From Stylophora pistillata (taxonomy: Eukaryota): a stretch of 64,000 bases of DNA. The stretch lies in contig NW_019217957.1 of the NCBI RefSeq assembly GCF_002571385.2, positions 352,895 to 416,894 of the forward strand, written 5' to 3'. Below the pieces are notes generated by a model, which did not search any database, was not told where the DNA came from, and worked only from the letters and a program-made list of their open reading frames with translations. Made by a program: the position numbers and the translations under genes. Position 1 is the first letter of the stretch. Each line of letters starts with the position of its first letter. Below are positions 30,201-33,006 of this stretch, one piece after another.

Positions 30201-33006
30201 GCTGGGCTCCCTGTGCCCTGCCCGCATTTTGCATGACCAGCGGTTTCACTTTATGGCTATTTATTATCGTAACCGCCATCTTGTATTTAGTCTTTAGTTA
30301 GGTTCTAAGTGAAGTAAGGCCTATTAAAGGTTCGAATTCAACAATTTACTTCACTTAGTTCTCATATCAGCAACATGGAAACCCTGCTAAAGCCACAACG
30401 TCTCGACTTGGATCCGAATTCGCCGTCAGCAGCGAAAGAATGGAAGCATTGGCTCCAGACATTTACGAATTTCATTCGAGAATGTGGTGAACGAGCTCCC
30501 GACCAACATCGCACTCTTGTAAATTATGTGTCACATAACGTGTTCGAGTACATCGAAGATTGCCCAGACTACGAATCATCCATTGAAGCCCTTAATCGAT
30601 TGTATGTCAAACCTCCAAATGAAATATTTGCTCGCCATCTCCTCGCAACGAGACGTCAAAACCCTGGGGAGTCACTCTCCGAGTTTCTACAGGAACTTCG
30701 GAGGTTAAGTAAGGATTGCAATGTAAAGAACGTGACCGCCGAACAATACAGAGAAGAACTGATTCGTGACTCTTTTATCAATGGGCTGCTATCTCCATTA
30801 ATCCGACAACGACTTCTGGAGAATAGACAACTTGATCTGAAGTCTGCATTCGACCAAGCTAGCGCGTTGGACTTAGCCCAGAAGAATTCCGAAGCTTGTG
30901 TAATACCTGGCAGTTCAGCGGCGTTAATTTCGGCTCTCGAAAATAGTGCTGGAATGTCCACACCAAACGATAATCACATGACTGCTGCTGTCATGCCCTC
31001 AAGGAAATGCTATTTCTGCGGAGGCTCTCTTCATAATAGGAAAGACTGCCCTGCACGTAACTGTACCTGTAACAACTGTGGTAAAAGTGGTCACTATGCT
31101 AAAGTATGCCAGTCAAGAATGACTAAAACAACGGCTTCAATAATCTCACCATCTCTCTGCTCAATAAGCGCTGCTTGCCCACAAAGTCTCATGCAAGCAT
31201 CCCTTAAGGCCACTATCTGTGATGTCACTCTGACTGCTCTCGTTGACTCTGGGAGCTCAGACAGCTACATAAATGAAAAGGTGGCTATGCAAATGGATCT
31301 TGAGTTACATCAGTCTGATCAGGACCTATCTATGGCTCTCACCTCTCTGACAACGAAAGTCCTAGGCCACTGTTATGTAAATATCAAGATAGGCCACCAA
31401 TTCTACCCATCTGTGCACCTGGGGGTACTAAAGGATCTCTGCAGTGATATCATCCTCGGCCAGGATTTCCAAAGGAAGCATAAAAGTGTTGTCATAGAGT
31501 ATGGAGGTAAAAAACCTGAACTCAAAATTCCCAACTCAACACCAGTGTGTGCTTTCGCGAAAGCTTCGATTGAGGAACCATCCCTTTTTGCAAATCTCCT
31601 TCCAGGATGCAAACCAATCGCAAGTCACCTCGGTTCAGCAAGGAGGACCAAGAATTCATACATCAAGAAACTAACCGCCTACTCTCCGAAGGCATTATTG
31701 AACCTAGCACCTCTCCGTGGAGGGCTCAAGTTGTCATCTCAAAAGACCCCCTACAGCGCCATAAGAAACGCCTGTGCATTGATTATTCACAAACTGTTAA
31801 CCTGTACACAGAACTTGATGCTTATCCCCTGCCCCGTATCGACGACATGGTCAACAATTTGGCTTTGTATAAGGTGTTTTCAACTTTTGATCTAAAAAGC
31901 GCTTATCACCAGGTGCCAATCAAAGATGCCGATCGGAAATATACTGGGTTTGAGGCCAATGGTAGACTCTATCAGTTCTGCCGCATTCCATTTGGGGTCA
32001 CAAATGGCGTTGCAGTCTTCCAGAGAGCAATGGACAAGTTTGTAGAGGAAGAAAGCTTGAAGGATACATTCCCATACCTGGATAACATAACTGTTGCAGG
32101 GCATGACCAGCGAGAGCATGATGAGAATGTCAAGAAATTCAGAGAAGCTGTACAACGACGACAGCTCACTTTGAATGAGAGCAAGACAGTAGAGTCTAAG
32201 ACGTCCATCAACCTACTCGGTTACTGCGTTGGCAATGGCCTCATCGCCCCAGACCAAGAAAGACTTCGTCCCCTTAGAGAATTTCCTCCTCCAGAAAACC
32301 TCCAATCTCTCAAAAGAGTTGTTGGGATGTTTGCATATTACGCAAAATGGGTACCAAACTTTTCTGAAAAGATACAGCCTTTGTCGCAAGCAACTACATT
32401 TCCCCTTGATGGCAATGCCCTAAGTGCATTCACAACACTGAAAAAGGAGCTGGAGAAAGCTTCCCTTCACTCAATTGATGAAAGTCTGCCCTTCATAGTG
32501 GAGACCGACGCATCAGAAACCGCTCTGTCAGCTACACTAAATCAAGGTGGCCGACCTGTTGCGTTCATGTCCCGGACACTCCAAGGAAGTGAACTACACT
32601 ATCCTGCTGTGGAGAAAGAAGCCATGGCCATTATCGAGGCGGTCCGAAAATGGCGCCATTTCCTTGCAGGTAGACACTTTACACTAAAGACAGATCAACA
32701 GTCAGTAGCATTCATGTTTGACAACCGAAAACGTACCAAAGTAAAGAACAATAAGATTCAGGACTGGAGACTTGAGCTGGCCTCCTTTAGTTATACAGTG
32801 GAGTACAGACCTGGGAAGGACAATGTTGCTCCGGACTCATTTACCCGAGCATTCACAGCTTCTATGCCGACAACGAGCCTCAGCGAAATTCATGTTGCAC
32901 TATGCCATCCTGGTGTCACACGGATGTTGCACTTTGTAAGGTCAAAGAACCTACCTTACTCTACTGAGGATGTCAAGAAGGTGTGCTCTAACTGTAGAGC
33001 CTGTNA

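Follow-up and report, generated by a model that had tools for sequence, protein, structure and literature searches.

How does a Gypsy retrotransposon begin reverse transcription if its LTR is not followed by a binding site for a tRNA primer? An element in a 64,000-nucleotide stretch of the Stylophora pistillata genome (contig NW_019217957.1 of assembly GCF_002571385.2, positions 352,895 to 416,894; hereafter the window) raises this question. A preliminary description of the window had proposed that the element primes itself in the manner of Tf1, that it belongs to a Mag-like lineage with twin CCHC knuckles, and that its self-priming might have arisen independently. Our reading, which we hold with reasonable confidence, is that the element is a young and broken copy from a non-chromovirus clade of Gypsy elements in which the primer site pairs with the element's own LTR, and that this clade likely primes its minus strand with its own RNA and not with a tRNA.

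The LTR (30172..30343, + strand) is 172 bp long and runs from TG to CA (TGTTGT...TTCAACA). Its ends were set by a solo LTR and by other copies in the genome. The solo LTR of the same family (29249..29420, + strand) sits 750 bp upstream, differs by one base (99.4% identity), and is flanked by a 5-bp target-site duplication (29244-29248 and 29421-29425). The window LTR is followed by ATTTACTTCACTTAG, and there is no TGG until the start of gag (ATG at 30375), where the first TGG lies; the preliminary description was right on this point. It had missed, though, what precedes the LTR. A polypurine tract (30159..30171, + strand) lies directly 5' of it, and the same sequence is found 5' of the 3' LTRs in loci L004/L005 and L007. 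Just upstream of this tract is an N gap (30096-30115). The row of polypurine tract, LTR, and primer site (30116-30343) is either a head-to-tail tandem with one common LTR or an assembly collapse. The junction between the LTR and the primer site is not an assembly artefact, because it recurs in L002 and L004, each with host DNA upstream.

There are 27 matches in the 398-Mb host genome, which holds about 20 copies of the LTR. The copies are 78-100% identical over the matched length, and several are 99-100% identical, so the family is young. The copy in the window is broken and gives no indication of serving the host. Another locus (L004/L063, G000:C396:99799-101374) is a short, internally deleted copy flanked by a 5-bp target duplication; its two LTRs match the window's at 98.8-100% identity, which makes the copy a candidate non-autonomous derivative. 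At L014 (G000:C116:382216-382393), the LTR is followed by just 5-6 bases from the beginning of the primer site (ATTTA or ATTTAC) and then by unrelated DNA, with no target duplication. RNA contigs of X1, X2, and X8 have the same arrangement of LTR, 5-6 primer-site bases, and unrelated DNA. These could be deletions, or they could be cDNA ends with a partly copied primer. Elsewhere, the window has a tandem histone gene cluster (about 36400-53100; three copies of a unit of about 6.6-6.9 kb), with H2B at 36531-36941, H1-like ORFs rich in Lys, Ala, and Pro, and a stem-loop motif family (D16). It also has two 21-bp tandem arrays (55092-55936).

Downstream of the LTR, one frame (30375..31620, + strand) encodes Gag, with twin CCHC knuckles at 31008-31109, and an aspartic protease. 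There is a frameshift near 31620 when compared to single-ORF relatives. The pol frame (31574..33005, + strand) encodes reverse transcriptase (RT; YLDN at 32075-32086), RNase H, and the first part of the integrase zinc finger, and it stops at an N and a GA repeat. The TG...CA LTRs, the target duplication, the polypurine tract, and the order PR-RT-RH-IN are features of Ty3/Gypsy elements, and the best match of solved structure is Ty3 Gag-Pol. The relatives among the 120 of 343 matches listed have one polyprotein of about 1,200 amino acids (many have 1,150-1,260) and come from cnidarians, molluscs, crustaceans, echinoderms, and tunicates. The element is part of a compact Gypsy clade found in marine invertebrates.

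The RT of the window element is 48-60% identical to those of other clade families in the host genome and at most 37% identical to the rest (30-37% for Mag-type elements). The window's Gag has two CX2CX4HX4C knuckles, and twin CCHC knuckles are present in 99 of 122 proteins. Clade LTRs are about 150-310 bp. In the catalytic motif of RT, the second Asp is normally fixed; among 95 typed relatives, 69 have YxDN and 26 have YxDD, and the two forms are mixed across the tree. None of five full-length relatives has a chromodomain at E ≤ 0.1, and the window copy ends before that region. Of three diverged relatives in the same genome, C46 lacks an upstream LTR, C173 has an N gap at the junction, and the junction of C60 has decayed. 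No relative from the clade was found in the viral contig set. An IMG/VR contig (L205, 948-8111) carries a Gypsy-type element that encodes Gag, Pol, and an Env-like region within a single open frame of 2,387 amino acids.

What, then, lies where the tRNA site should be? Positions 30346-30358 are the exact reverse complement of 30305-30317, inside the LTR, and this 13-nt match, also noted in the preliminary description, can be extended by a G-U pair between G30318 and T30345. We place the predicted self-primer arm at 30305..30318 (+ strand; 13 Watson-Crick pairs at 30305-30317 and the G30318-U pair) and the position of the primer-binding site, which is complementary to the arm and has no TGG, at 30345..30358 (+ strand). 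A30344, right after the LTR end, is unpaired. The arm is directly followed by a 4-bp hairpin (30319..30331, + strand) whose loop holds ATTAAA (30323-30328); in other words, in the window family, this hexamer is outside the long duplex. The predicted RNA fold of 30305-30365 has an energy of -18.2 kcal/mol (z = -5.19), and none of 200 shuffles was as stable.

We examined the conservation of this pairing in metagenomes, where we retained the best 80 from among 376 related stretches. As a measure that does not assume where the LTR ends, we took the longest perfect inverted repeat within 200 nt upstream of gag; it was at least 12 bp in 60 of the 80 loci. In shuffled sequences (10 per locus), it averaged about 7 bp and was never longer than 11. 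The 81 loci, including the window, fall into 33 families at 80% identity of gag DNA. Six families had no readable junction (at least three of these have short or truncated flanks). In 26 of the 27 readable families, the site, from +2 or +3 behind the LTR onward, pairs with the family's own LTR over 12-19 bases, although pairing out to +13 is partly by construction, as the junction motif was derived from the same data and we took the best copy per family. The exception is L167, with 7 bp. TGG was not found in the first 8 nt after the LTR in any of the 27 families. Where a family had both LTRs, the boundary of the direct repeat agreed to within 4 nt in at least one copy (9 of 10 families).

Other elements of the same genome served as controls. 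At 19 other gag loci, the inverted repeats were just 5-9 bp, and a TGG-type site was visible by eye in 16. In the six control elements whose LTR pairs were clean, TGG stands at the end of the LTR. Mag-like families are among the elements with TGG sites and no such stem.

The register of the pairing is nearly invariant. The first base after the LTR (+1) is an unpaired A in all 26 families, and +2 is paired in all 26 (25 Watson-Crick pairs and one G-U pair). The loop between the arm and the primer site varies in length, from 23 to 71 nt. This is what a primer requires: a register fixed at the LTR end and an arm whose 3' end faces U5.

Which bases form the pairs varies greatly. The 26 families have 24 distinct 12-mers, and all four types of pairs occur at +7 to +14. 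If the arm of one family is matched to the site of another, the pairing averages 5.2 bp and reaches at least 12 bp in just 4 of 702 combinations, all of them between two pairs of families with similar arms. Compensatory change in related families had been suggested as a check on the self-priming idea, and with the pairing kept in all but one of the readable families, it is borne out. At the level of sequence, then, the pairing, its register, its covariation, and the absence of a tRNA site are established.

Within families, the changes are more often one-sided (13 cases) than matched on both sides (3 cases). In L107, a G-C pair has become a U-A pair, with the change present in both LTRs and in the primer site, in a copy that is 98% identical to its sibling. 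This change could not have passed through a wobble pair. For L165, the one-sided change reflects decay after insertion, as shown by the intact 3' LTR; not all of the other one-sided cases could be checked in this way. Double changes of the L107 type fit two accounts: selection during replication, or a primer that is copied into its site. According to the consulted part of PMC7472051, the primer is copied into the site in retroviruses but not in Ty1 or Ty3.

The covariation in 26 of 27 families and the lack of a tRNA match support the idea of Tf1-like self-priming. In Tf1, the transcript's first 11 bases anneal to the primer site, and a cut by RNase H between bases 11 and 12 yields an 11-nt primer (PMC7175516, consulted in part). 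For the clade, we infer a transcript start at the arm and a cut at the arm's 3' end. More specifically, the transcript would start at or just before the arm (30305-30308 in the window), and the arm would fold onto the primer site across the loop of 23-71 nt. A cut at the 3' end of the arm (after about 30318), probably by the element's own RNase H, would free a 3' end that points into U5 and could prime a strong-stop DNA of about 24-72 nt. The segment from the cut to the poly(A) site would serve for strand transfer. The window's pol does have an RNase H domain, whose cutting activity is predicted. As the arm ends in AATAAA or ATTAAA in most families, the 5' poly(A) signal would be covered by the same duplex, a likely secondary advantage.

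Some features of the leader are consistent with such a start and cut. A hairpin of at least 4 bp begins at the first base of the loop in 20 of 26 families (5.4 expected). Counting from the 3' end of the arm, 17 of the 26 families have A at 11 nt, 22 have G at 10 nt, and 19 have T at 9 nt. We take this pattern to resemble an initiator; if so, transcription would start at 30306-30308 and the primer would be 11-13 nt long. The TATTTA boxes that the preliminary description cited are present (30258 and 30284), but they make a weak argument, as TATA-like boxes are not conserved: just 5 of 26 families have one at the expected distance (24-36 nt upstream). We did not detect the third duplex of the Tf1 "pretzel," as pairing between the leader and the loop averaged 4.8 bp within families and 4.4 bp across families. 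Transcript data were sparse. Four raw RNA runs had just 9, 19, 34, and 13 reads (75 in total), with no pile of ends in the LTR. Four sets of poly(A) contigs cover the LTR and gag, but these contigs break at the boundary of the repeat and may include DNA. In three loci (L137, L142, and L146), the start codon of gag is 0-3 bases after the self-pairing site, so there is no leader left for a packaging signal, and the duplex may affect translation as well.

Where does this clade come from? We inferred an unrooted tree from RT-RH sequences (43 rows, 382 columns, LG+C20); six BEL/Pao regions that we tried as a root aligned weakly. The 13 clade rows form one branch (100/100) with a stem of 1.57, and this branch is joined (95/89) to 8 rows that are Mag-like by our own reading, with no named reference, and that form a group themselves (99/95). 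The 10 chromovirus rows, which are stand-ins and include no named Tf1 or sushi element, are apart (100/100). P0151 and P0156 lack a chromodomain and so were not counted as chromovirus rows, and a duplicate row (L098) was left out. The LG+G4 model gives the same arrangement. A union of the clade with the four stand-in rows from fungi and fish was rejected (p-AU = 0.007); a union with all 10 chromovirus rows was not (p-AU = 0.06).

So the clade groups with Mag-like elements and not inside the chromoviruses. The proposed assignment to a Mag-like lineage with twin CCHC knuckles stands in that the knuckles are there and Mag is nearest, but the clade is a separate group on a long stem beside Mag rather than Mag proper. 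On the suggested independent origin, we favor the view that self-priming arose apart from Tf1/sushi, by convergence, given the Mag-like neighbor and the rejected union with the fungal and fish rows, but this is unproven, as the tree is unrooted and a position as sister to all of the chromoviruses was not rejected.

The alternative, which concerns the origin only, is that self-priming was inherited from a common ancestor with Tf1/sushi and that tRNA priming was gained or regained in the lineages between. We think that this is unlikely. It could accommodate the p-value of 0.06 for all of the chromoviruses, the very long stem, and the lack of a root, and hairpin priming has been proposed to be ancestral (PMC3601003, consulted in part). 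It is harder to reconcile with the rejected nesting among the fungal and fish rows (p = 0.007), with TGG-primed Mag-like elements as the nearest group in both trees, or with a twin-CCHC Gag, no chromodomain in five relatives, and no pretzel. Also, plant chromoviruses are mostly primed by tRNA-Met, as the consulted text of PMC6317226 describes them.

If convergent or not, does the duplex prime at all? Instead, it might just mask the poly(A) signal of the 5' LTR (behind the 3' LTR, the partner is absent), with priming by something else. Hairpins that occlude a poly(A) signal are known from HIV-1, and 19 of the 27 arms end in AATAAA or ATTAAA. However, the other 8 families have no canonical hexamer in the arm and still maintain the pairing, and in three of these, including the window's family, ATTAAA lies 5 nt into the loop and outside the duplex. 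Masking cannot be the sole purpose, as families without the hexamer keep the pairing. Masking does not need a fixed start at +2 from the LTR end, either, and it would leave the elements without any primer site, as none of the 27 families has TGG. We consider it quite improbable that masking is all that the duplex does.

Another alternative keeps the pairing but changes the source of the primer. The same LTR sequence might act in trans or from elsewhere: as a small RNA from a solo LTR, from a second copy in the genome, or from the arm in the 3' R region. The arm is in every LTR, there are about 20 LTR copies in the genome, and priming in cis or in trans cannot be distinguished from sequence alone. 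What argues for cis is that the fold is very stable across a short loop (z = -5.2), that the conserved hairpin abuts the 3' end of the arm (20 of 26 families), as expected of a structured cut site, and that a single copy, L107, has matching changes in its own LTR and its own primer site. We give little credence to a primer from another molecule or from the 3' end.

Comparison to tRNAs had also been suggested as a check. The genome has 35 occurrences of the exact 13-mer required of a primer; we scanned 23 of these loci, including 14 of the 15 that are outside of the family's LTRs, and none was in a tRNA. A search of Rfam gave no match. That the site binds the 3' end of a tRNA or a tRNA half, and matches the LTR by chance, is almost certainly wrong: we found nothing to support it (in a comparison that covered exact 13-mers), the site has no TGG, the exact 13-mer was in no tRNA at the scanned loci, and a fixed tRNA or tRNA half cannot be the primer because the site changes from one family to the next and follows the LTR of its own family, so that covariation largely refutes it.

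To our knowledge, self-priming has been shown only for Tf1 of yeast, which is distantly related to the clade, and has been predicted for relatives of Tf1 and for one plant lineage of Copia elements. If the clade does prime itself, then escape from the host's tRNA primers and from silencing by tRNA fragments has evolved repeatedly. The clade is relevant to the question of which came first, priming by a hairpin or by a tRNA, and its dozens of natural variants could help to define the requirements of RNase H for cutting a primer. Self-priming would also account for the failure of annotation by tRNA matching to locate a primer site in these elements. More tentatively, and with less than even confidence in the picture as a whole, we suggest an animal-wide Gypsy clade with independent tRNA-free priming, in which one duplex would serve as the primer and, in most families, as a poly(A) mask; the primer would be copied back in each cycle, so that a single step changes both arm and site; a strong-stop DNA of as little as 24 nt would suffice; and the RT would be mostly YxDN. 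Our literature searches found no report of self-priming for this clade; the notes in Repbase and GyDB and some supplements were outside their scope, so an earlier mention is possible.

Among described groups, the clade is likely that of Cigr-1, a Ty3/Gypsy element from Ciona intestinalis, which we presume from a match by description. In 2000, Simmen and Bird reportedly described Cigr-1 as having a single ORF of about 1,210 amino acids and an echinoderm-type Gag. The traits ascribed to Cigr-1, a single ORF near this length and short LTRs, are also those of the clade (1,150-1,260 amino acids and about 150-310 bp). No Ciona protein is among the 120 of 404 matches listed. In the consulted text of PMC6238403 and PMC8556966, the Cigr-1 clade is placed in Ciona intestinalis and also in molluscs and annelids, and this host range fits the clade's matches in tunicates, molluscs, crustaceans, echinoderms, and cnidarians. 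Supplement 1 of PMC6238403 files Cigr-1 under Mag. The text that we searched in these two papers says nothing about the primer site of Cigr-1.

Mag-type elements (Mag, SURL, and the A, B, and C clades) resemble the clade in their twin CCHC knuckles and short LTRs, their Gag is about 30% identical, and they are nearest in the RT-RH tree. They differ from it in how they are primed, as Mag-like families of the same genome have TGG sites and no self-pairing, and their RTs are just 30-37% identical to the clade's.

The TAR lineage of Ty1/Copia (Houba and Osr-1) is another case in which self-priming was predicted from complementarity between the LTR and the primer site (PMC6317226, consulted in part), so convergence has a published precedent. 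The TAR lineage is unrelated to Tf1; unlike the clade, it belongs to the Copia superfamily and is found in plants. We also considered Selgy as a name for self-priming elements and rejected it, as Selgy is a plant clade.

The closest parallel in mechanism is Tf1/sushi. In Tf1, Tf2, and Tj1, as in the clade, the primer site is right behind the CA of the LTR and is complementary to a stretch of the 5' LTR, and there is no tRNA site. The lengths of the duplexes are similar: 11 nt in Tf1 (PMC7175516, as far as consulted) and 12-19 bp in the clade. Unlike Tf1/sushi, the clade has no chromodomain (0 of 5), its Gag has twin CCHC knuckles, and its RT has YxDN in 69 of 95 typed relatives; nor does its RT-RH group with the fungal and fish stand-ins for chromoviruses (p = 0.007). 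The leader of Tf1 folds into a pretzel of three duplexes (10.1101/2022.12.06.519325, consulted in part), while the clade shows no sign of a pretzel and has instead a local hairpin after the arm, an arm that usually ends in a poly(A) signal, and a very short loop. Overall, the clade probably works like Tf1 but, by chromodomain, pretzel, and tree, is not a member of Tf1/sushi. Its signature is real and clade-wide, and is a variant of the known mechanism of self-priming with a geometry of its own; that these elements do prime themselves in this way is likely.
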